Source: a virus (Duplodnaviria > Caudoviricetes). Taken from it: 64,000 nucleotides of DNA. Below the pieces are notes generated by a model, which was not told the DNA's origin, did not search any database, and worked only from the letters and a program-made list of their open reading frames with translations. Of the stretch, positions 4,608 through 56,956 are shown one piece after another. Both the position numbers and the translations under genes were made by a program. Location: the IMG/VR virus record IMGVR_UViG_3300027805_000006, one strand, 5' to 3'. How positions within the stretch are numbered: position 1 is the stretch's first letter; every line of letters begins with the position of its first letter.

Positions 4608-7600
4608 ATGGCAGTCAATCGTAAGTTTGTCGTCAAGCACGGCTTAGATGCAAACGCAATATCAATAGATAATCTTGGCGCATTAGGCTCAACGTTTGGT
4701 TTAGCCGGTGGTCATACATTAACACTTAGTACTACTAACACAACTTCTGTTACACTGCCAACTTCTGGGACACTAGCAACAACTGCTGATCTTGGTGGGT
4801 ATCAACCACTTGATGCTGACCTAACGTCAATTGCAGGTCTTGCCGGAACGTCAGGATTTCTAAAGAAAACGGCAGCAAATTCCTGGTCTCTTGATACAAA
4901 TACATATCTCACAGGCAATCAGACAATAACTTTTTCTGGCGATGCAACAGGTTCTGGCACTACAGCAGTTGCACTTACGTTAGCCAACAGCGGTGTGACT
5001 GCTAGTACATACAAATCGGTGACGGTTGATGTGAAGGGACGGGTAACGGCAGGAACAAACCCAACAACTCTTGCTGGTTATGGAATTTCCGATGCACAGC
5101 CACTAGATGCAGACCTTACAGCGATTGCTGGTCTTGCAGGCACATCTGGATTTCTAAAGAAAACGGCAGCAGATGCCTGGGTGCTTGACACAAACACATA
5201 TCTAACTGCAAACCAAAGCATCACTATTTCGGGTGATGTAAGTGGAACAGGAACTACCGCCATAACGACAACACTGGCAAATAGCGGAGTATCTGCTGCT
5301 TCATATGGTTCTGCTTCTCAGGTTGCAACATTCACCGTAGATGCAAAGGGCAGGCTAACAACTGCTGCTAGTACCTCTATTGCAATTACAACTTCACAAG
5401 TAACCTCTGGAACATTTGCAGATGCACGAATTGCTGCTTCAAATGTAACTCAGCACCAAGCGTCACTTTCAATTGCAGAAACGCAGATCACAGATGGAAC
5501 ACTTCTTGCACGATTAGGTTCAAATGAAACTGTGACAGGAACTTGGTCATTCAGTAATCCAGTTTCTGGTGCTACACCTACAACAGACAGTCACTTAGCA
5601 ACCAAGCAGTATGTAGATAATCTATCAACTGGCTTGGATATGAAGCAGTCAGTTCGTGCTGCTACTACTGGTCCAATTACACTCAGCGGAACACAGACTA
5701 TCGATGGAGTTGCAGTTGTTGCTGGTGATAGAGTACTTGTAAAGGACCAAGGCACTGCTTCTCAGAATGGTATTTATGTTGTTGCTGCAGGCGCTTGGTC
5801 ACGTTCAACTGATACAGATGGAAATCCAGCAGCAGAGGTAACTTCTGGGCTTTATACATTTGTTACTGAAGGCACAGTAAATGCAGACACTGGCTGGGTT
5901 CTTGCAACAAATGACCCAATAACGCTGAACACAACTGGCCTAACATTTGTTCAATTCACTGGTCTTGGTCAAATAACTGCAGGCGACGGTCTAACAAAAA
6001 CTGGATCTACTCTAAATGTTGTAACGGCATCTGCAGCAAGAATTGTTGTCAATCCTGACAGCATTGATCTTGCAACTGCTGGAACTGCTGGAACATATCG
6101 TTCAGTAACAACAGATGCATATGGGCGTGTGACTGCTGGTACTAACCCAACAACTCTATCCGGTTATGCAATTTCTGATGCCCAGCCTCTCGATGCTGAC
6201 TTAACAGCACTTGCTGCTCTATCTGGCACAGGCTTTGCTGTAAGAACTGCTGCAAATACTTGGGCACAAAGAGATATTGCAGTTTCGGGTAACGGTCTTT
6301 CTATCACGAATGGCACAGGCATTTCTGGAAATCCAACAGTTACCAGCAATGCAACGAACGCAAACACCGCATCAACTATTGTTTTTAGAGATGCTTCTGG
6401 CAATTTTTCTGCTGGTACGATCACCGCGTCTTTAAGTGGTAATGCTACAACAGCAACAACGGCAACTGTAGCAAACTCAATTTCTGTTCCTGATACAAGA
6501 AACGTCACAACAACCCCAGAAACAATAAATCAAAGTGTTGTTTTTGATTTTAAGGCAAACACCAGCAATGCGCTGTCTGATGGTGGAACATACCACGGGC
6601 TAATGACATTTAGACAGTGGGGTAGCACTACTGACTGGTCTGGAGGTAGAAGTCACCAGTTAGGATTTACTGACAATGATAATGTGTGGCATCGAAGTGG
6701 CACTTCAACTACCTGGGGAACTTGGTATAAACTATGGCACTCTGGAAATGATGGAAGTGGTAGTGGTCTTGATGCTGACCTACTTGATGGGCTTGAACTT
6801 CATACTGGAAGAAATAATGAAGTCAATAAAGTTGTAAGAACAGATGCAAGCGGTTATCTCCAAACAGGTTGGATTAACACCACCAGCGGTGATAATGGCA
6901 CAACAGCAATTGACCGTGTTTATGCCTCAAGTGATGGCTACATTAGGTACTATACTCCAACAAACTTTAGAACTGTTCTAGATGTTCCAACGCGCACGGG
7001 CGGAAGTGCTTCTGGTACTTGGTCAATCAGTGTTACTGGGAATGCAGGCACAGCAACAACTCTGCAAACAGCAAGAACCATTAATGGCATTTCATTCAAT
7101 GGTTCCGCAGATGTTGTAGTACCTTCAGACTGGCTGCACAGCGGAAGAGACTTTCCACTTGGCACTTTAGTTCAAACAACAATTGACTATTCTGTAACAA
7201 ATGGCGATCCTTGGGTTCTTGAGATCCGTGGTAACGCGTATGGTTCAATTGTACCATTTGAAATTCAGTACCAGGGGTACATCTACTCAGATACGATCAT
7301 AAATCACGGTGGATATTCAGTCGGTACCACGCTAACAGGACTAGTTGTCTTCAACTATGGTGGAAAACTGTGCTTCTGGTGGCCAAATCAGTCATACTGG
7401 CACGGGTACAATGTTCGTGTTTATACGACATACAGCGGGTATAAACCAAATACTGTTACGACCATAACGAATGAAGCGAAGCCTGTAAGCATAACAAAGG
7501 AAGTTGCTCTTTCATCTGGAATTAGACAGGTACTGCGCTCTGACAACTACAACTCGTATGCACCTACTCTAACTGGTACAGGCGCATCAGGAACGTGGGG

Positions 7601-29054: not shown

Positions 29055-29594
29055 TTATTTGGTGATCTTCCTAAGGGTGATGTATGTTGTCTCTACATCA
29101 CCATCCCATTGCGTAGAATGGGTTTCTACGTCCCAAAGAATTTCTTGCTTTCTTTGAGAGATTATAAATCTTTTCCACTCGTAGATATTTGTCTTGATTT
29201 TAACCTCAGCCTCACTTGATGAGGCTATAAGTGTCATATGAATTTCATCTACTAGATTTTTTTCTAGTGCTTCATCATAGACAGATGCTCCGCCCGCCAC
29301 CCAAATATGTTTCTGCTTTTTCCCAACATATTTTTCAAGAACGTCAATTGAGGAAACATACTTGACGCTTTTATGCAAAACCGGAGTTTTTGATAAGACG
29401 ATATTCTTGCGATTTGGAAGACCATTTGGTCGCTTAAGGCTCCTAAATGTAGTATTTCCCATAAGAACCGTGTCACCTATGGTGAGAGCCCTAAATCTCA
29501 TTAGATCATTTTTCAGGTTTGGATATGCTAACCTACCATCAGACCAACCAATGGTACCTACACCATCTACTGCTAGAATGAGTTTTACGGCCAT
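29055..29594 (-). CDS. folA: Dihydrofolate reductase
   Basis: LILAVD...IG...D..RFRALT.G..VLMG.TTF.SL...LPNRKNIVLS...WVAGGASVY. Confidence 0.9.
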   Translation of the reverse strand: MAVKLILAVDGVGTIGWSDGRLAYPNLKNDLMRFRALTIGDTVLMGNTTFRSLKRPNGLPNRKNIVLSKTPVLHKSVKYVSSIDVLEKYVGKKQKHIWVAGGASVYDEALEKNLVDEIHMTLIASSSEAEVKIKTNIYEWKRFIISQRKQEILWDVETHSTQWDGDVETTYITLRKITK

Positions 29595-31210
29595 TAGAAC
29601 TTCTTGCCAAACTGGGAGATAATCTGTGGCGCAGCGCTGTCAAATCCAGCAATGTCCAACTGTAGAGGATCATTTGGGTCAGAGACCGAAACATCTGTCA
29701 CAGACGTGGCAATAATAACTTGACGTGTCTTGGGTGTGTCCATCTTGCGGCGATACTGCTTGAGCGCATCTGTTGCGTGGATTTGACCTGCCCACGTTTC
29801 ATTGTCGGTGATGCTCACGAAGGTATCCACCTTCATGCGATTTTCAAGCGCGTGGGTTGCTGGTAGAGAAAGATCGGTGCCGCCCCAGTTAAACTTCTGC
29901 ATCTTCTTCAACACGGCATCTAGGCGCATGTTGGGGCTAATGTGCAATTCTGACATTTTGGTGTTGAAGCCACCAATCCAGTAGTTAGAATGATTTTTTA
30001 CCACAGCAAGAGCCATCACAGCCGCTACTTCAGCCGCTGAAAGATTAGGAGAGCCATTTACTTTTACGCCAAACATTGAGGCAGAGCAATCAACGCCTAG
30101 GAGATAGGCTTCATCGCTCTTCTCACCCTGCTCAAAGGCCGCATAAAATGCATCGTCGAGCGCATCAACAATTCGCTGATTTGGCTTCCACTTTGCCTTG
30201 CTCTTTTCACCTTGACCGGCTGAATACTGCCTAATCGCTTGAAGGAGCGTCAGTGGATGCACGCGCTGGTCACGAAGCGCATGTGTATTTGACAGTTTGC
30301 TGATTATCAAGTTGGAGCCTTCAGACAGTGGCGTCAGCACCCCATGAGAGGTCAGAATACCCAACTTGCGAATTACGGCAGTGAGACCCATATTGACAAG
30401 TAGCGCTGAGAGCACGTCCTTATCTGTCATCCACTTAGTGGGCACCATTTCCCAAGTAATATCCTTGTTGTCTGAAATGATGCGAAGCACTTCCTCACGC
30501 GAAGAGGAGGTCTTCAGTGTCTCAAAGTCCTGAACGAGTTTTGGCAGCGCTTCGAGATTTGACTTCTTTCCAACTGCATATCCAAGTAAAGCCTCCTGCT
30601 CGGGAGATGTTGGCTTGGTATGTGAAAGACGTAGCACGTCTCGGTGTGCCCACCCGTTTCGTGACTTGTACTTTAGCAGTTGAACAGCAAGGCGTTGAAT
30701 GTCCTTGTCGTTATACCACTTAGCAATGCCCCTCTTTGCTGCAGCATTCCACTTGCCAAGAGCGTCAAGAATGGAGACAAACAGGAATAGCCAAGTGCCG
30801 GTGCGTGCAACCTTTGGGAGGGCATCATAGGCGGCTTCAATTGTCGCCGCGTTTCCATAAACCGCGGCTAGCGCGATGGCAACAACTGAGGTGTCGTTCT
30901 TGGGAGACCTGCCAGTAAGAGAATACTCCAGCGCATGGCGCACTACTCGCACACCATCTTCGGCAATGCACGCCTTGATGGTATCAAAGCCCTGCTTAGT
31001 AATATCCTGCTGCGATGCATAGTAGGATGATTGCTCGCTGCCAATCAGGAGGAAGCGGTCAAGGACGCTCCACTTATCCAACTTGAAGGCAAAACCCCCA
31101 GCGTTGTTAAGTTTCATTTCACTCTCGCGGCCAGGGATGGGCTCAGCCTGCGTGGGGAGAGTGCTTGAAGGAGATGATGAGCGGGCGTATTGCGAGTAGA
31201 TGCTTGACAT
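29594..31210 (-). CDS. rsr: Ro60 / TROVE-domain RNA-binding protein (Rsr)
   Basis: NNAGGFAF...LDRFLLIGSE..SYY, SRNGWAHRDVLRLSH, MGLTAVIRKLG, vWA DCSASM, NWGGTD, TDNETW, AGFDSAAP. Confidence 0.95.
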   Translation of the reverse strand: MSSIYSQYARSSSPSSTLPTQAEPIPGRESEMKLNNAGGFAFKLDKWSVLDRFLLIGSEQSSYYASQQDITKQGFDTIKACIAEDGVRVVRHALEYSLTGRSPKNDTSVVAIALAAVYGNAATIEAAYDALPKVARTGTWLFLFVSILDALGKWNAAAKRGIAKWYNDKDIQRLAVQLLKYKSRNGWAHRDVLRLSHTKPTSPEQEALLGYAVGKKSNLEALPKLVQDFETLKTSSSREEVLRIISDNKDITWEMVPTKWMTDKDVLSALLVNMGLTAVIRKLGILTSHGVLTPLSEGSNLIISKLSNTHALRDQRVHPLTLLQAIRQYSAGQGEKSKAKWKPNQRIVDALDDAFYAAFEQGEKSDEAYLLGVDCSASMFGVKVNGSPNLSAAEVAAVMALAVVKNHSNYWIGGFNTKMSELHISPNMRLDAVLKKMQKFNWGGTDLSLPATHALENRMKVDTFVSITDNETWAGQIHATDALKQYRRKMDTPKTRQVIIATSVTDVSVSDPNDPLQLDIAGFDSAAPQIISQFGKKF

Positions 31211-31244
31211 ACAATCTCCTTTTTAAAACTATCAAAACGACAAA

Positions 31245-31636
31245 AACTAAGTTGGAAGTTCAGTGAATAAAACAATAAGTCCTAATCACCTACACCCATT
31301 TATTTCGTAATAGGTAACTCACGGATATTACGTTATCCGACCGTCCATTTAATTCTCAGTTAAATGAAAAACCTATCCATTTTTTGGATAATGGCATCCT
31401 CTAATTTCCAGACTTATCTTTCAACTCGCGTGGATTGATTAGAATTTCTATCACCATCATCGTTATGATAACCAACTTTAACGGTCGTTTTGAAATAACT
31501 AGTAATCTGAAACAAAACAGGTATGGGTGTAAGGAATTAGCCAGTCCTTAACTTCTGCTTTCAGACTGCTATGCAGTCAGGCTATCCATTATATGATAAC
31601 CATATCCTCACGGTTTCAGATGTTTTCAACTTTGAT
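31245..31636 (-). ncRNA. Candidate structured non-coding RNA(s) upstream of Ro60, possibly Y-RNA-like
   Basis: About 480 nt with no ORF in the track, with its own promoter. Helices at 31505-13/31613-21 and 31519-26/31600-08 (bulged). An 11-nt direct repeat TGGTTATCATA occurs twice. Y RNA genes are known to flank ro60 genes. Confidence 0.55.
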
Positions 31637-31642
31637 GAAGCA

Positions 31643-31671
31643 ATTCTACTATAGAAACAAACTACTGTAAA
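31643..31671 (-). promoter_or_regulatory. Strong sigma70-type promoter TTTACA-17-TAGAAT
   Basis: -35 at 31671-31666 and -10 at 31648-31643 with exact 17-nt spacing; predicted start near 31636. Confidence 0.8.
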
Positions 31672-31693
31672 ACTGTTTATTCAGGTTGAAGTT

Positions 31694-32317
31694 TTATTCT
31701 TTCTTCTTAGTTAATCTAGCAAGAAGGGCAGCCTTGAATTTTGGTGCCTGCACCTTGTAAATTCCGTCAAAGGCTCTCGTGTAGTTTGACACAAGCCTAT
31801 CAACCGGAGAAAGGTCTGCTCGCGTTTTTGCAGTTGCTGGCTCTGCTGACTTTAATCTTCCGGTGTATGGTGCCTTTCCCCCAGTGCTGTAGGAAGTGAT
31901 GCTTGTAATTCTTCCACTCAGTAAAACACGGCGCCATACTGCTTGACCCTGCTCATCTCCAAGTAGAGAGCCTTTCTTGCCCGTAAAGAGAAATGTGCCA
32001 TTTTTCTCTTCACGCTTAGTTGTTTTCTCAACAAATCCAATCTTCAAGAGTTTGGCATATTCTTCGCTTTCGCGCGCCTTCTTCATCGCAGGTGCAAGAT
32101 CTTCAGTTGTTGCACCAATTTCTTCCAACCAATCTCCAGCGATACCAGTTATAATGCCCTGGCGGTTATAAATTCTATGGCCACCAGTGTCTGTCCATGC
32201 GCTGGCTCTTTGTGAACCATACGATGGTTCAGCATACCCACGCCGATTAGGTATCTTTTTTCCCTGAGCATCTTTTTTAGATGTGTAAAGTTCTAGTAGA
32301 AGTTCAGCAGCTTTCAT
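31694..32317 (-). CDS. Hypothetical basic protein, possible internal head protein
   Basis: 207-aa ORF with N-terminus MKAAELLLE. Confidence 0.7.
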   Translation of the reverse strand: MKAAELLLELYTSKKDAQGKKIPNRRGYAEPSYGSQRASAWTDTGGHRIYNRQGIITGIAGDWLEEIGATTEDLAPAMKKARESEEYAKLLKIGFVEKTTKREEKNGTFLFTGKKGSLLGDEQGQAVWRRVLLSGRITSITSYSTGGKAPYTGRLKSAEPATAKTRADLSPVDRLVSNYTRAFDGIYKVQAPKFKAALLARLTKKKE

Positions 32318-33403: not shown

Positions 33404-33982
33404 TCATTCAAAGTGTTTTAAAACACGTGAATGCTCAGGCAGATATGCCTTTAAGAACTGCATCTGGCAGGTCAAGATATTACGGTTTTCCAAAATTAGG
33501 GCTTCTGCTCTATTAGGGGTATATGGTAGATATAACAGTTCCATATCACAATCTTCAAGAAGATTATCATCCTTCTTTCGATTGCACTTGCCACAGGCAG
33601 TAACCACATTCATCCATTTATCTGCGCCACCTTTTGACCGAGGTATGATGTGGTCTCTCGTCAATTTCAAATCCTTGAAGATTTTTCCACAGTAGGCACA
33701 CATAAAATGATCGCGCCTGAATAATTCTTTATTGGTAAGCGCTGGGACAGAATTCATTCTTCTGATTGCTGCTGCTTCGGTCCTCTTTACTGCTATGATT
33801 GGAGCACTGTAAATTTTAGATTGCAGTCCAGTAATCTTGTTAATGCCGCCTCGATAAACAATCTTTTCTTTATCATCCTCTAGTTGCCAAGCAACTAACT
33901 TCTTAGCGTGATAAACGATTGCATCATCTTTTGAAATCCATCGATGTGGAGTTCCTTGATAATCAAGTGCTAGCACCCTCAT
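33404..33982 (-). CDS. HNH endonuclease family protein
   Basis: LFRRDHFMCAYCG...TRDHIIPRSKGG...W.NVVTACGKCNRKKD. Confidence 0.9.
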   Translation of the reverse strand: MRVLALDYQGTPHRWISKDDAIVYHAKKLVAWQLEDDKEKIVYRGGINKITGLQSKIYSAPIIAVKRTEAAAIRRMNSVPALTNKELFRRDHFMCAYCGKIFKDLKLTRDHIIPRSKGGADKWMNVVTACGKCNRKKDDNLLEDCDMELLYLPYTPNRAEALILENRNILTCQMQFLKAYLPEHSRVLKHFE

Positions 33983-34434
33983 TTCATATCCTTTACAATC
34001 TCTTCAAGTCTCTGAACAAATTTGACGTGGTCCCTCCTTCCATCTTCTTTAAATTGGTCAAGGGTCATCCATACGACATATTCAGTTTCTTCACACCACT
34101 TATCAAAGTCATAGCGATCCTGAATTTCAACACCAAATACTGCTAGGTTATATGCGCAAGAGTAAAGTTCTACTCTGCCGGCAAAGATGTGATGATATTC
34201 ACCCCTTGCATTTCTTTGCTTATATCCTAGTTCTTCTTCGGCTTCTCTAATTGCACATTGCAGTGCATCTTCATTTTCCTCAATCTTTCCCTTTGAAATC
34301 ATTGGACGTGGTCCGCCAAATTTGGGGTCAGATGAAATCATCATCATATACTGTATGATACCGTCTTCATTCCTAAGGAATGGTATCAGCCCAGAACGGG
34401 GACTTTTTTCGTAACCTTCTTCGCTTCTATGCAT
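33979..34434 (-). CDS. NUDIX hydrolase
   Basis: Nudix box KGKIEENEDALQCAIREAEEELG. Confidence 0.85.
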   Translation of the reverse strand: MHRSEEGYEKSPRSGLIPFLRNEDGIIQYMMMISSDPKFGGPRPMISKGKIEENEDALQCAIREAEEELGYKQRNARGEYHHIFAGRVELYSCAYNLAVFGVEIQDRYDFDKWCEETEYVVWMTLDQFKEDGRRDHVKFVQRLEEIVKDMK

Positions 34435-34456
34435 AGTGGGAGTTTGTAAGATATAC

Positions 34457-34480
34457 GAGAAGGGGATTAATCCCCCTCTC
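34457..34480 (-). terminator. GC-rich hairpin GAGAGGGGGA-TTAA-TCCCCTTCTC (terminator or processing site)
   Basis: 10-bp stem with one G-U pair on the minus strand and no U-tract. Confidence 0.4.
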
Positions 34481-34511
34481 TGATTTTAAAAATTATTGTT
34501 AGAAATATGAA

Positions 34512-34655
34512 TTATTTCTCTGGAAATTCAAGTACGAGCCTGTATATTAACAGGTCAATTACTATACAGGAATGTTCTACTCCGTTATCTTCATGTTTCT
34601 GGACATATTCTATTCCAAGCGCTGCGCCTGTTATAAAACACCCAGATATAATCAT
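34512..34655 (-). CDS. Small hypothetical protein (47 aa, MIISGCFITGAALGIEYV...)
   Basis: Read by hand; in the same strand run as its neighbours. Confidence 0.55.
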   Translation of the reverse strand: MIISGCFITGAALGIEYVQKHEDNGVEHSCIVIDLLIYRLVLEFPEK

Positions 34656-34658
34656 AAC

Positions 34659-34763
34659 TTACTTCTTAAACCAAGCCAAAACAATAGGCTTGAACTTATT
34701 GTAAAGCATCATCCAAAATGGAGCGAATGCTGTTCCAATTGCAATTCCGATAATAAAATCCAT
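34659..34763 (-). CDS. Small single-TM protein (34 aa, MDFIIGIAIGTAFAPFWMMLYNKFKPIVLAWFKK)
   Basis: Read by hand; GGAGG SD 4 nt before the ATG. Confidence 0.65.
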   Translation of the reverse strand: MDFIIGIAIGTAFAPFWMMLYNKFKPIVLAWFKK

Positions 34764-34807
34764 ATTTCCTCCGTAAAAAGCAACGACCTTTGCTGCCTTA
34801 GCAATAT

Positions 34808-35896
34808 TTATTGATTACCGCGCGTATTTTTAAAAACAAAAGAGTATGCCGCTGTCTTCTTCAATTCACCATATGGAATATCAGATGGCTTCAAAATTCC
34901 TTTGTTTAGTTTTCCTTCAAGCAGCAACTCAATCACTGCAACTCCAGTACCAGAAGTTGTAAGTTCAAGAGCAGTCAAACCTAGTTCTTCTTCGGGCAGG
35001 AAGTGAATACCTGCAGAAGCCATTTTTCCATTGACATCTTTTGCTACTGCTGCTAGCACCACAGTGTCGTCACGGGTGGTAGGAAATTTTTTCTTTGCGT
35101 CCTCAACTGCTTCTTCAAAAGAAAAGTTTTCGTTATTCAAAAAATTCTTTAGCAGCGGTTTGATGGTATTTTCTAAATGACCTTGATGACGTAGAGTTTT
35201 ATATTCCACATTAGGAATATGTGGATACGCTGCTAGGTCACCTACGCCGCCCGATGTGGTAAAGCCTTCATAGATAATTCCATCAACAAGAAGTTCTTCT
35301 CTCTCGATAAGAGGATCGACTACCTGTAGGGCGCCGTTTCTTTTTCGCTTTGCGGGTTTAATATACTCGTTAATCAGACCTTCTGGCGACCAAGTAATAG
35401 CATAGTAGTCAGGACCAAATGCCACTCTAGGAAGAGCACCTACTCGCAGGTCAAGAGAATGAGGCGTTCCGAGATTTGAGAAGAGGTCTAGACCAATATA
35501 ACTTACCAGCCCAGGTGCTAGGCCTGTCTGAGGGACAAATGTTGAAGAAACGTCAAGTGATGAAATGAATTCAGTTACTTGATTATCCTCGGTAAAATCA
35601 ACGTAATCAACTGCCCTAGACGCAGCAATCTGAGCAACGGTGGTGTTAATGTTGAATGGAGTAGAGCAAACAACTACCTTCGGGCGAACTATGTCAAAGC
35701 ACTGTTCTAGTTCTTCTTTAGAAGAGGCAACAAATGTTTTGATGTCCTTAGAGTACTGCTTGACGCTTTCAATAGCAGCGGGTAGTGTATCTACTACATA
35801 GATTTCACCAATTTTTAGGGTGTTTGCAATTTTTATAAGCGCTAAACCAACTCTACCTGCACCAACTACAAGTATCCGTGCCATAATGGGCTCCAA
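34808..35896 (-). CDS. Saccharopine dehydrogenase / lysine 6-dehydrogenase / polyamine-synthase-like oxidoreductase
   Basis: Rossmann ILVVGAGRVG, TGLAPG, LRVGALP, ITWSPEGLINEY, LEYKTLR-like segment. Confidence 0.8.
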   Translation of the reverse strand: MEPIMARILVVGAGRVGLALIKIANTLKIGEIYVVDTLPAAIESVKQYSKDIKTFVASSKEELEQCFDIVRPKVVVCSTPFNINTTVAQIAASRAVDYVDFTEDNQVTEFISSLDVSSTFVPQTGLAPGLVSYIGLDLFSNLGTPHSLDLRVGALPRVAFGPDYYAITWSPEGLINEYIKPAKRKRNGALQVVDPLIEREELLVDGIIYEGFTTSGGVGDLAAYPHIPNVEYKTLRHQGHLENTIKPLLKNFLNNENFSFEEAVEDAKKKFPTTRDDTVVLAAVAKDVNGKMASAGIHFLPEEELGLTALELTTSGTGVAVIELLLEGKLNKGILKPSDIPYGELKKTAAYSFVFKNTRGNQ

Positions 35897-54500: not shown

Positions 54501-55538
54501 TCATCTAATTATTAGATATGCTATTACAAGAACACACAATACTTCAGCCAGAAAGTAGATAAACTTCTTATTTTTTACGGCAGTATCAAATAATGTATTT
54601 TGCACCGGCTCAGGCTCTTCAGGTGGTGGAGATACGTCATCACTTATCTGTGCGGGAGCAGTGGATGGTGCAGACCATGTTCCAGGCGCAGGTGCTTCTG
54701 TTAGAGTACCTGCGTTAAACCCCCATGGCTTCAAGAATGATTGGTCATATAGTGAAGGATGTCCATCAAGTTGAGGACGCTGTGTAAAACCGTTCGCAGC
54801 CATAAACTTATTCATATATGTTGCAACATCACGATAAGAAGAAAGACCAAGAGATAGGGACTTTAACAGTGAATATGTAGCGGCGCCCTGAAACTGGTTA
54901 TTAATGAATGCATCTGCTGATGTTTGGTGTGACTGGCAACCAGAGATTAGAAGAGCAGAACGATTTACGTCGCGTGATGTCTTAAATTCTCTGACTTGCA
55001 GTTTATTTTCTGTAATTTCAGTTTGGATGTATTCTGGCATTGGAAGAAATCGATTTCCCTGCTTTTGACTAGATTCAACAAGCGGCGCAGTAATTTCACG
55101 CGTTAACTCAAGAGAATCTTCTTGATCTAGTGCATTTCCGGAGTGGCAGCAATCTAGGACAACTGTAACGTTTACTCCATTTGGCACTTTATTAAATACC
55201 TGCTTCATGTAATCGTCTGTCACTACATTATCACGCCAATCTAAGTCAATAGGACAGATAATTTCGTCCAGACCGTCTGGCTCTACTGTTGAGCGCATTT
55301 GGGATCCATGACCAGAGAAGTGGAAAAAAATAACATCTCCCGGAATAGCACCTGTTACGAGCCATTCAAGACCCCTCTTGATTCCAGCAGCAGTTGCATC
55401 CTTTTCTAGGATGACTTTAATTTCATCAAAACCTTCTTTTGATAGAAGATTTTGTACATTATTCACGTCATTTATGCAACCACGCAGATCATTTCCAGTG
55501 CCTGCATAGTTTATTCCAACCAAAAGTGCCTTTTTCAT
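54501..55538 (-). CDS. Metacaspase (Peptidase C14) with C-terminal transmembrane anchor
   Basis: KKALLVGINY...LRGCIND, FHFSGHG (His), LDCCHSG (Cys), SGCQSHQTSAD, PQL. Ends FIYFLAEVLCVLVIAYLIIR. Confidence 0.92.
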   Translation of the reverse strand: MKKALLVGINYAGTGNDLRGCINDVNNVQNLLSKEGFDEIKVILEKDATAAGIKRGLEWLVTGAIPGDVIFFHFSGHGSQMRSTVEPDGLDEIICPIDLDWRDNVVTDDYMKQVFNKVPNGVNVTVVLDCCHSGNALDQEDSLELTREITAPLVESSQKQGNRFLPMPEYIQTEITENKLQVREFKTSRDVNRSALLISGCQSHQTSADAFINNQFQGAATYSLLKSLSLGLSSYRDVATYMNKFMAANGFTQRPQLDGHPSLYDQSFLKPWGFNAGTLTEAPAPGTWSAPSTAPAQISDDVSPPPEEPEPVQNTLFDTAVKNKKFIYFLAEVLCVLVIAYLIIR

Positions 55539-55843: not shown

Positions 55844-56956
55844 TTAAACATTAACTTGATTGACTAGAATATGCTTGATTGTGCTCAAGCGATACTTATT
55901 GATTTTCTTTTTTATTTTTTCACCATCATCATTATCAACTAGTTCTCGTGGAACTGATTGAAGCGCAGAATTTATTTGCTTAAGGGTGGTGCTGCTCACA
56001 CACATACTATTACCAGCAAGTTCTTGAATCTTTACCAGCATAATTAATTCACCTAGGTGATAGTTTTTATGCTCAAATGCTCTAGCAGATGAGAGTACAT
56101 TCAGTAGTTTGACAGGAGTAATTTTCTTTGCATCCTTCAGTTTGCAGAAGGCAGAATGAAGATTCTTAGATGCAAATGTGTGCAGACTCTTTGAGTCTTC
56201 TGGACAAATAGACATGGTAAAATAAATTACCTTTGATGATTCCATGTAATATTCACATACTTGATTTACGGCGCTTGCAACATCAACAAGACGAAGAATA
56301 TCACTCTTCTTTTTAATAAGACCAGAGAAAAACTTTGAGTGCGAAAAAACACCAAGATCCTTTAAACACTTGATAAAAATATTGAAATTAGGCTCTTCAA
56401 CAGTTTTTGCAAGTATTAGCCAGAAGCGAACATACTGAAGTTCGTCAAGCATCTTTTGCTTTACCATCTTTTTACACAACTTGAAAGTTTTTGTATGGAT
56501 AGTAAAACCAAATTGGCTAAGTCTAGCATACAGATTCGCCACACGAATTACACGCAGGGCATCTTCTGAAAAAGCACTAGACGTGTGGCGTAGCACTTTG
56601 TCTTCAATGTCTCTCTTACCGCCAAATGGATCAATGACTTCACCTGTAGAGAGGTCTTTAGCCATGCTATTGATAGTTAAATCTCTGCGTCTAAGGTCAT
56701 CAACGAGTGAAATTTTTGAATCAGCATCTACAGTAAATCCAGAATATCCTTTTCCAGATTTTACCTCAGTACGTGCGAGAGCATACTGCTCATATGTTTC
56801 TGGGTGAATAAAAATTGGAAATGAAAGACCTACCTTTTCAAATCCTTGTGCTAGCATTTCTTCTTCTGAAGAACCTACAACTACGTAGTCTCTATCCTTC
56901 GGCTCAATGCCAAGAATTTCGTCTCTTACTGCCCCGCCGACCAAATAAATCTGCAT
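55844..56956 (-). CDS. cca: tRNA nucleotidyltransferase (CCA-adding enzyme, class II, no HD domain)
   Basis: YLVGGAVRD.....PKDRDYVV, ALARTE..SGKGY.GF, DL.RRDLTINSMA, DPFGG..D, FSEDALRVIR. Confidence 0.92.
   Translation of the reverse strand: MQIYLVGGAVRDEILGIEPKDRDYVVVGSSEEEMLAQGFEKVGLSFPIFIHPETYEQYALARTEVKSGKGYSGFTVDADSKISLVDDLRRRDLTINSMAKDLSTGEVIDPFGGKRDIEDKVLRHTSSAFSEDALRVIRVANLYARLSQFGFTIHTKTFKLCKKMVKQKMLDELQYVRFWLILAKTVEEPNFNIFIKCLKDLGVFSHSKFFSGLIKKKSDILRLVDVASAVNQVCEYYMESSKVIYFTMSICPEDSKSLHTFASKNLHSAFCKLKDAKKITPVKLLNVLSSARAFEHKNYHLGELIMLVKIQELAGNSMCVSSTTLKQINSALQSVPRELVDNDDGEKIKKKINKYRLSTIKHILVNQVNV

Follow-up and report, generated by a model that had tools for sequence, protein, structure and literature searches.

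Y RNAs regulate Ro60, a ring that serves RNA quality control and is conserved in organisms as distant as bacteria and humans, and the question addressed here is what lies in front of a ro60 gene carried by a virus. The DNA analyzed, a stretch of 64,000 nucleotides (nt) from IMG/VR virus record IMGVR_UViG_3300027805_000006 (referred to below as the window), contains ro60 on the minus strand. The neighboring gene upstream stops at 31694, which leaves 483 nt (31211-31693, minus strand) before the ro60 ATG. A preliminary description of this gap had proposed two or three Y-like RNAs, or a leader autoregulated by Ro60. Comparative analysis yielded two Y-type modules, and the putative third copy proved not to be a module. 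We consider it probable that the gap is an RNA operon leader with two tandem Y RNAs before ro60.

A conserved non-coding region upstream of ro60

Relatives of the window's Ro60 protein (45-67% identity) were taken from assemblies, and most of them have a gap of 400-600 nt before ro60. When the window's gap served as the seed of an iterated nhmmer search, 33 loci were found to contain the element, in every case immediately upstream of ro60 and in the same orientation as the gene; many of the contigs exceed 300 kb. The conserved blocks are a -10 box, AACCG..GGTTATC (present twice), CTCTTTGT, CGCAAGTTGAAAGACAAGCC, GGTGTAGG, CCGAAATTNCCGA and TTTTTGT. The arrangement CCG-N(7-14)-GGTTATC was found twice upstream of ro60 in nearly all relatives, including loci beyond the reach of nhmmer. 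The short word GGTTATC is not enriched across the window (9 matches vs 5.6 expected). All sequence features listed in the preliminary description were found in place, on the minus strand, among them the exact repeat of the 11-mer TGGTTATCATA at 31602-31592 and 31474-31464.

The same description had noted no open reading frame (ORF) before ro60, and the longest sense ORF between 31694 and 31210 indeed encodes only 33 amino acids and has a TTG start. In the gap, substitutions between relatives fall on all three codon positions alike, with no 3-base periodicity, and the indels (lengths of 1, 2, 10 or 21) do not come in multiples of three. The first 900 nt of the ro60 coding sequence, used as a control in the same pairs, showed both a third-position excess and indels in multiples of three. 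Since the gap lacks the coding signature that the control displays, we conclude that it is non-coding; a translated small ORF was rejected on the grounds of ORF lengths and of these patterns. The minimum-energy fold of 31205-31645 has -109.5 kcal/mol (z = -2.6), and 1/100 shuffled sequences was equally stable.

Architecture of the two modules

The main elements of the two modules are as follows.

31505-31621, minus strand: Y module 1, 117 nt (fold, covariance model R1, family covariation)
31621-31613 / 31513-31505, minus strand: basal helix of module 1, with the bulged C at 31612
31608-31600 / 31526-31519, minus strand: upper helix of module 1, with UUAUC at 31599-31595
31578-31564 and 31550-31530, minus strand: loop hairpins of module 1
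31232-31493, minus strand: Y module 2 (stem covariation)
31493-31484 / 31241-31232, minus strand: basal helix of module 2, with the bulged C at 31483
31478-31472 / 31255-31249, minus strand: upper helix of module 2, with UUAUC at 31471-31467 and the U-rich AGUUUUU at 31248-31242 opposite the bulged C

Both modules, located 21-410 nt upstream of ro60 on its strand, have (i) a covarying basal helix, (ii) ACCG with a bulged C, (iii) a covarying upper helix ending in GG, and (iv) a loop opening with UUAUC. The partners of the bases immediately 5' of each CCG are located immediately 3' of a run rich in U that has G as its last letter. Of the CCG itself, which follows the basal helix, the second C is unpaired in both window modules and faces UUUU or UUUUU, while the 5' strand of the upper helix ends with GG before UUAUC and its 3' strand starts with CC. 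The UUAUC sequence (YUAY) is part of GGUUAUC in both modules; it is nearly invariant in the family and also occurs in the RF01656 consensus. The ends of each module pair in a stem around a large loop, and both closing helices covary in the alignment of ro60 upstream regions, the comparison that the preliminary description had proposed.

The Ro60 contact motif has been described as GGUCCGA in animals and GNCGAAN0-1G in bacteria, with YUAY opening the loop (Chen et al., PMC4201824). In vertebrates, the site is a helix in which one C bulges out and three nt bulge on the other strand; sbRNAs and vertebrate Y RNAs also have UUAUC (PMC4726728). Both window stems appear to follow the design by which the stems of Y RNAs, nematode sbRNAs and bacterial Yrl RNAs bind Ro60. 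The label "non-canonical", given to them earlier, seems not to apply: the bulged C in CCG, the U-rich bulge opposite it and the UUAUC that opens the loop make up the classical Y design.

For module 1, the 9-bp closing helix AUCUGAAAC/GUUUCAGAU and both inner hairpins reported previously are present in the minimum-energy fold. The bulged helix AGG(A)UAUGG/CCAUACCU, reported with them, does not form in the fold of the window itself, but the corresponding helix of the family covaries. The basal helix comprises 5-9 bp in the family, with pairs of strands such as GGAAC/GUUCC, CCAAC/GUUGG, GUGAAC/GUUCAC and GCGAC/GUCGC. When 29 homologues were folded separately, most minimum-energy folds showed, in order, the basal helix, one unpaired C, two pairs, a small internal loop and the upper helix, with a U bulge of 3 nt in the 3' strand. 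Across 9 minimal module 1 sequences, 85.0% of positions were paired, compared to 64.1% after shuffling and 26-43% with the partner slid, and 11 of 17 pairs had changed on both sides. Module 1 is described here as a predicted minimal-type Y RNA. In this subclade, the two variable hairpins of its loop are separated by a single-stranded block that is kept and resembles UGAAAAC(A/U)G (UGAAAGCAG, window 31559-31551, minus strand).

A covariance model, R1, was made in this analysis from the minimal module, and module 1 of the window scores 24.9 bits against it (E 0.002-0.005). Applied to 574 kb of ro60 loci, R1 yielded 73 matches (E <= 1), and 30 loci of bacterial genome assemblies yielded 22 more, so that phage contigs and bacterial genomes are both represented. 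All 95 are on the ro60 strand, either 5' or 3' of the gene, and loci with 2-3 copies are common. In an alignment of 57 matches, 90.8% of cells were paired vs 57.7% after shuffling and 17/17 pairs covaried, values that lean towards structure because the alignment was fitted to R1. The family consensus, G.gcCG.ag-[9 bp]-GGUUAUC ... cC-[9 bp]-a...auUUGu.c, appears to fit the YrlA/YrlB motif with YUAY as well as the vertebrate bulged-helix description; its g-c-C-G-(g/a)-A-G portion fits GNCGAAN0-1G, with flanking letters that differ in the window. Tandem minimal Y-type modules (2-4) were also observed beside distant ro60 genes, e.g., in loci L010 (6003-6074 and 6304-6394) and L068 (4184-4257 and 4271-4371), and in L121 (2125-2960, four matches), downstream or upstream of the gene; one of these loci is on a 405-kb viral contig.

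The search with the Rfam Y RNA and YrlA models that the preliminary description had called for found no match to either module. Rfam returned nothing relevant for the whole window at the gathering score, for relative L015 or for 20 relatives, and no Y-type match for L039, while ARAGORN predicted no tRNA or tmRNA in the window or 32 relatives. In the positive control, mycobacteriophage Sebata, the YrlA model scored 37.4 bits (E 1.4e-5). With the YrlA and tRNA models giving no match and this control matching, the lack of a tRNA-like T-loop stated earlier was borne out. Since Rfam is silent while the YrlA control scores, the window modules are classed as Y-type by architecture and context and belong to no curated family.

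One R1 match does link the family to a curated one. In locus L114, a planctomycete assembly, the match at 4798-4861, just 3' of its ro60, reaches 48.7 bits with RF01656 (gathering score 38) and also aligns weakly to Deinococcus_Y_RNA. The RF01656 consensus, UCGGUCCGGaG..UGGGUUAUC...CCCA..CACCAACUUGACCG, has the layout of the window modules, and the design is common to its printed form (cgcaUCGGUCCGGaGucgaUGGGUUAUC...CCCAucgaCACCAACUUGACCGUugc) and to the Deinococcus_Y_RNA consensus (GGgCCgaAGuGGuCaCGGUU). The stem of the L114 RNA is nearly identical to that of nematode sbRNA, across kingdoms.

In module 2, the long-range pairing AAGUUGG/CCAACUU (31478-31472 / 31255-31249) is real and covaries; it had been taken for an alternative helix and is in fact the upper helix of the module. 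Likewise, the second GGUUAUC copy does not belong to a small unit, as had been thought, but to the 5' strand of a module of ~260 nt closed by long-range helices. In 29 sequences, 84.6% of module 2 stem positions were paired, compared to 67.7% after shuffling and 25-48% with the partner slid, and 11 of 13 pairs had changed on both sides. A basal stem of 10-29 bp, with wholly different sequences, was found in 33 of 35 loci, and the length from CCG to the closing G ranges between 244 and 367 nt. Two other early assignments did not hold: the degenerate third copy, CCGUGAGUUACC (31324-31313), lacks a closing helix and covers parts of two conserved hairpins, namely the 3' strand of the first and the beginning of the second, and the helix 31282-300 / 31523-40, complementary in the window, is not kept in relatives.

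The inner domain, the ~210 nt that separate UUAUC from the 3' strand of the upper helix, is conserved in the close clade and has the following parts.

31342-31448, minus strand: 5' half (model R2, 71 bits)
31443-31438 / 31405-31400, minus strand: helix Pa
31430-31411, minus strand: GAAA-loop hairpin
31394-31390 / 31381-31377, minus strand: helix Pc
31366-31346, minus strand: hairpin Pd
31386-31399, minus strand: candidate H-type pseudoknot, GGAU (31399-31396) with AUCC (31389-31386) in the Pc loop
31289-31338, minus strand: 3' half (conserved blocks, in part covariation)
31338-31323, minus strand: hairpin GGAUA-ACGUAA-UAUCC, family loop RUCG(A/U)A (covariation by eye)
31315-31289, minus strand: hairpin ACCUAU..AUGGGU, then near-invariant GUAGG (4/5 ACC..GGU pairs covary)

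R2, a covariance model made in this analysis from the 5' half, gave 14 strong matches within 550 kb, every one of them in a module 2 from the close clade, and no others. Its four helices were 81.2% paired, compared to 64.3% after shuffling and 35-49% with the partner slid, and 16 of 21 pairs covary. Complementarity for the pseudoknot was found in 14/14 relatives, with a summed best length of 63 vs 52.5 +/- 2.8 in shuffled sequences (0/1000 reach this value); every individual case is weak and the signal lies in the sum only. On the 3' side of GUAGG, a variable hairpin is followed by CNGAAAU, which faces UUAUC. Module 2 appears to be a large new variant of Y RNA with an undescribed effector domain, kept in at least 30 jumbo-phage-like genomes.

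The 268-nt RNA and transcription of the region

The phage is present at 100% identity in one freshwater metatranscriptome run (X1, from a lake), in which separate short contigs cover parts of ro60 (word depth 3.4 and 4.2) and upstream genes (7.9). A Logan contig of the same run, 298 nt long and with a word depth of 18.4, consists of 31231-31498 followed by its own first 30 nt (31231-31260) again. All 23 sampled words of the 31231-31498 stretch were present in X1. The length of 298 nt (268 + 30) is the output expected of a k=31 assembler for a closed cycle, and the species is defined as follows.

31231-31498, minus strand: discrete 268-nt RNA, 3' end (31231) joined to 5' end (31498) in the X1 contig

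The junction has no extra letters and its position is unambiguous. One end, 31231, lies one base past the basal helix, and the other, 31498, five bases before it; the end sequences are CUAG|UUAUUUC and UUGAU|AGUUUU. Because molecules with exactly these ends exist, module 2 is regarded as a discrete processed RNA. The 5' cut falls within the conserved U-rich spacer motif YUUUCAA and may resemble an RNase E-type site, and the 15-29-bp stems of the relatives look like possible RNase III substrates.

How the ends came to be joined is less clear. We see an even balance of chances for a junction of non-biological origin, produced by template jumping of reverse transcriptase or by ligation in vitro, with the RNA being linear in the cell. 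The junction was found in a single run, as an assembled contig, and where a linear RNA is abundant, a few chimeric reads suffice for a closed de Bruijn cycle. Such an origin fits less well with a junction that is exact, without added letters or ambiguity, and that joins the very two ends brought close by the basal helix; moreover, even an artefactual junction shows that molecules with exactly these ends occur. A true covalent circle in the cell is a possibility that we view with some doubt, and a concatemer would give such a contig as well. We advance only tentatively the fuller proposal of a giant Y RNA: during infection, module 2 would be excised and its ends ligated to form a 268-nt circle, and its pseudoknotted domain would be a new effector.

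Known routes to a circle were compared with the ends by sequence reasoning. The ends do not fit (i) a group I intron, which needs U before the 5' cut and a final G, (ii) a group II intron (GUGYG...AY), (iii) a hammerhead (NUH before the cut), and (iv) a bulge-helix-bulge (two 3-nt bulges). Rfam detected no ribozyme, and a retron was rejected, no reverse transcriptase being located nearby. No report of a circular Y RNA was found in the literature.

The elements that flank the modules are listed below.

31682-31690, minus strand: conserved motif TTCAACCTG, with which the family profile begins, ~40 nt 5' of the -10 box
31643-31671, minus strand: sigma-70-type promoter-like site (consensus match plus a kept -10 element), with a predicted start site
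31625-31640, minus strand: leader hairpin CUUCAUC-AAA-GUUGAA, just 3' of the predicted transcription start (minimum-energy fold)
31222-31216, minus strand: Shine-Dalgarno sequence AAAGGAG, preceding the ro60 ATG at 31210

The promoter TTTACA-17-TAGAAT described earlier is present at 31671-31643 and agrees with 10 of 12 consensus positions. Three sites of this type were found in the window vs 2.0 +/- 1.4 expected, which by itself is not beyond chance; TATAAT-like -10 boxes, often TGTATAAT, are located at the aligned position in relatives. At the position of the leader hairpin, relatives have another hairpin sequence, e.g., GCAUCGA-GUAA-UCGAUGC (compared by eye, unscored). The motif TTCAACCTG is kept in most relatives and is not enriched elsewhere in the window. 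Since the upstream ORFs of the window and of L015 are not homologous, it is not a coding remnant, and its origin as the coding tail of an upstream gene was rejected. The outer part of the module 2 stem in relatives consists of a similar sequence, UCAACCUC.

Taken together, the following model is proposed. A sigma-70-like promoter would drive a single transcript composed of a 5' hairpin, the tandem Y RNAs and the ro60 message. In each module, the basal helix would pair the ends, and the AC-C-G of the 5' strand, with its second C bulged opposite a U-rich bulge, would lead into the GG/CC helix and the UUAUC loop. This handle is most likely the docking site of the phage's own Ro60 ring, as predicted by analogy with animal Y RNAs, sbRNAs, Yrn1, Salmonella YrlA/B and Yrl1/2 of Thermus phage phiLo. 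Module 1, as a minimal Y RNA with a variable loop, may gate or occupy Ro60. Module 2 would carry, where YrlA has its tRNA-like domain, a domain of ~210 nt with at least six helices and the candidate pseudoknot, which most likely acts as an effector, tethering Ro60 to a partner from the host or the phage, or as a decoy. It would be cut out as the discrete 268-nt RNA, leaving ro60 with a 20-nt leader, and its ends, held by the basal helix, would be joined head to tail, suggestive of ligation into a circle.

Alternative readings and relation to known Y RNAs

Several points weigh against this model. The window handles, AACCGUGAGG and GACCGUUAAAG, deviate from the published GNCGAA(N)G, and at E <= 10 Rfam gave only chance-level U3 and 'drum' matches in the region and no Y-type model. 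R1 and R2 are self-built, with fitted alignments biased to structure, and the promoter is a consensus match only. Expression support comes from one run and from contigs only, which are silent on strand, true ends and relative amounts, and X1 coverage excludes module 1. Ro60 binding of the window RNAs and a partner of the inner domain are predictions.

Other explanations of the gap have to be set against these findings. It is improbable that the gap acts solely in cis, as a structured 5' leader that sets ro60 translation and mRNA stability through stems bound by Ro60 or cleaved by RNases, with no free functional RNAs. Both modules do follow the promoter-like site and precede the ro60 ribosome-binding site, the distance from the end of the module 2 basal stem to the ATG is short (21 nt in the window, mostly 41-67 nt in relatives), and the 15-29-bp duplex of the relatives resembles a processing stem. 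However, a discrete 268-nt species with defined ends exists, and R1-type modules elsewhere are also located 3' of ro60 or hundreds of nt away from it, often in 2-3 copies, a variety of placement and copy number which argues that they act as separate genes. Autoregulation and free RNAs are in any case mutually compatible.

Slightly better placed, although still unlikely, is the view that module 2 is a strongly diverged YrlA, i.e., a permuted tRNA mimic with an expanded 'V' region and no new effector. The order of its elements matches (handle, YUAY, V region, GUUG, RUCGAA-loop hairpin, closed hairpin, UAGG, handle), and distant ro60 loci pair an R1-type module with a tRNA-model match of 117-129 nt, which suggests that module 2 holds the place of YrlA. 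Yet the YrlA and tRNA models and ARAGORN are blank in the window and in 20-32 relatives, although the YrlA control reached its 37.4 bits, the T-loop U54/A58 equivalents are not kept (GUCGUAA loops; ACGUAA in the window), and a D arm is not recognizable. Very unlikely, in our opinion, is a large structured RNA that is unrelated to Ro60 binding and merely travels with ro60. It would agree with the lack of any matching Rfam family and with the confinement of the inner domain to one clade, but not with the Y RNA handle in the closing stems of both modules, found beside ro60 across very distant loci and always co-oriented.

The stretched tRNA-model matches beside ro60 were located in L102 (2688-2807), L103 (4719-4843), L104 (1990-2106), L105 (1995-2119), L114 (4995-5118), L121 (2747-2875) and L123 (4725-4847). 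These loci are bacterial and phage-like, several with long tRNA arrays, and the matches probably represent tRNA mimics of the YrlA type or tRNAs that contain large inserts.

Y RNA genes have been found up to 4 kb from ro60 on the same strand (PMC4201824), and a phage Ro60 gene is preceded by two Yrl RNAs that bind Ro60 and PNPase (PMC12135203). Like the window modules, YrlB of S. Typhimurium and Yrl1/Yrl2 of phiLo (PMC4201824, PMC12135203) are encoded beside ro60 on the same strand and have no tRNA-like domain; the class shares with the window a tandem position upstream of a phage ro60, paired ends and a CG(A)A-type motif, and module 1 fits into it. It differs in that the window motif is ACCGUG or ACCGUU, not GNCGAA, and in that the module 1 loop of this subclade has a two-hairpin insert. 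With respect to the nematode sbRNAs and vertebrate Y RNAs (RF01656, RF00019; PMC4726728), the L114 relative of module 1 passes RF01656 whereas the window modules do not score, and the animal RNAs, unlike these modules, are polymerase III transcripts of ~100 nt.

Module 2 is best compared with larger Y RNAs. YrlA (RF02553; bacteria and mycobacteriophages) is likewise a larger second RNA with a Ro60-type handle and a structured domain after YUAY, and its hairpin order is reminiscent of module 2; the latter, in contrast, has no detectable T or D arm, is 2-3 times longer and carries a 5' subdomain with a candidate pseudoknot in one clade. Yrn1 of D. radiodurans (RF01053), part of the Ro60/Y RNA/PNPase machine RYPER, has the same two-part logic of a Ro60 handle and an effector module; its consensus has the 5'-strand layout of the window, with no sequence similarity to Yrn1 beyond the handle. 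Stem-closed RNAs with joined ends are known from the circular intermediates of permuted tRNAs and from the bacterial linear/circular non-coding RNA DucS (PMC10504365), as compared to which the module 2 junction is known from one metatranscriptome contig and no bulge-helix-bulge or ribozyme is recognizable at its ends. Wang et al. pointed out that YrlA RNAs resemble permuted tRNAs, which mature via circular intermediates, that rsr/yrlA adjoin RNA ligase genes, and that Y RNAs might be processed like permuted tRNAs (bioRxiv 10.1101/312249).

The ro60 gene itself (29594-31210, minus strand) encodes 538 amino acids with the Pfam domains TROVE (7.3e-25) and vWA_Ro60 (2.8e-48), and its stop is overlapped by the start of a DHFR gene located 3' of it (ATGA at 29594). 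The window is phage-like, with a G+C content of ~42%. No DNA match to it was found among cultured phages, whose Ro60 proteins are <40% identical, while the contigs on which its Ro60 protein is recorded reach 330 kb and those of relatives measure 315-376 kb. Because of these large contigs and the absence of a close cultured relative, the source is a jumbo-phage-type genome known from metagenomes only. The closest Ro60 relatives in the genome collection are in an Oscillatoriales bin (L098, 2.3-kb contig) and an Acinetobacter bin (L099, 36.6-kb contig); these contigs are probably phage sequence binned with bacteria, a weak host hint at best.

Upstream of the Y RNA/ro60 block, the order saccharopine dehydrogenase-NUDIX-HNH endonuclease is alike in the window (33404-35896, minus strand) and L015 (1-1789), and the ORF immediately before the RNA genes differs between the two. 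The window also encodes, on the minus strand, a 370-amino-acid protein (55844-56956) with a PolyA_pol head domain, an RNA 3'-end enzyme of the CCA-adding enzyme or poly(A) polymerase type, and a 345-amino-acid protein (54501-55538) with a caspase (Peptidase_C14) domain (E 6.5e-35). For a 297-amino-acid ORF on this strand (698-1591), Pfam gave no match at E <= 0.001. No RNA ligase or RtcB was found among the 24 window ORFs scanned with Pfam, the window representing about one fifth of the genome.

To our knowledge, the function of the effector halves of Y RNAs is known in few cases only, namely PNPase tethering and tRNA mimicry, the latter of unknown purpose. The jumbo-phage-like clade described here would have swapped the tRNA mimic for a different, larger and well-conserved fold, which offers a way into the recruitment of Ro60 by phages. 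As the phage and bacterial handle nearly equals that of the sbRNAs, including UUAUC, the whole stem design, beyond CCGA, seems to be ancient. The X1 contig provides the first RNA-level evidence for a discrete module 2 species with joined ends. If this species is a true circle, the connection between Y RNAs and RNA ligases becomes directly testable, and a natural circular Y RNA would be a concrete substrate for the long-noted genetic link of Ro60/Y RNA with RNA ligase.
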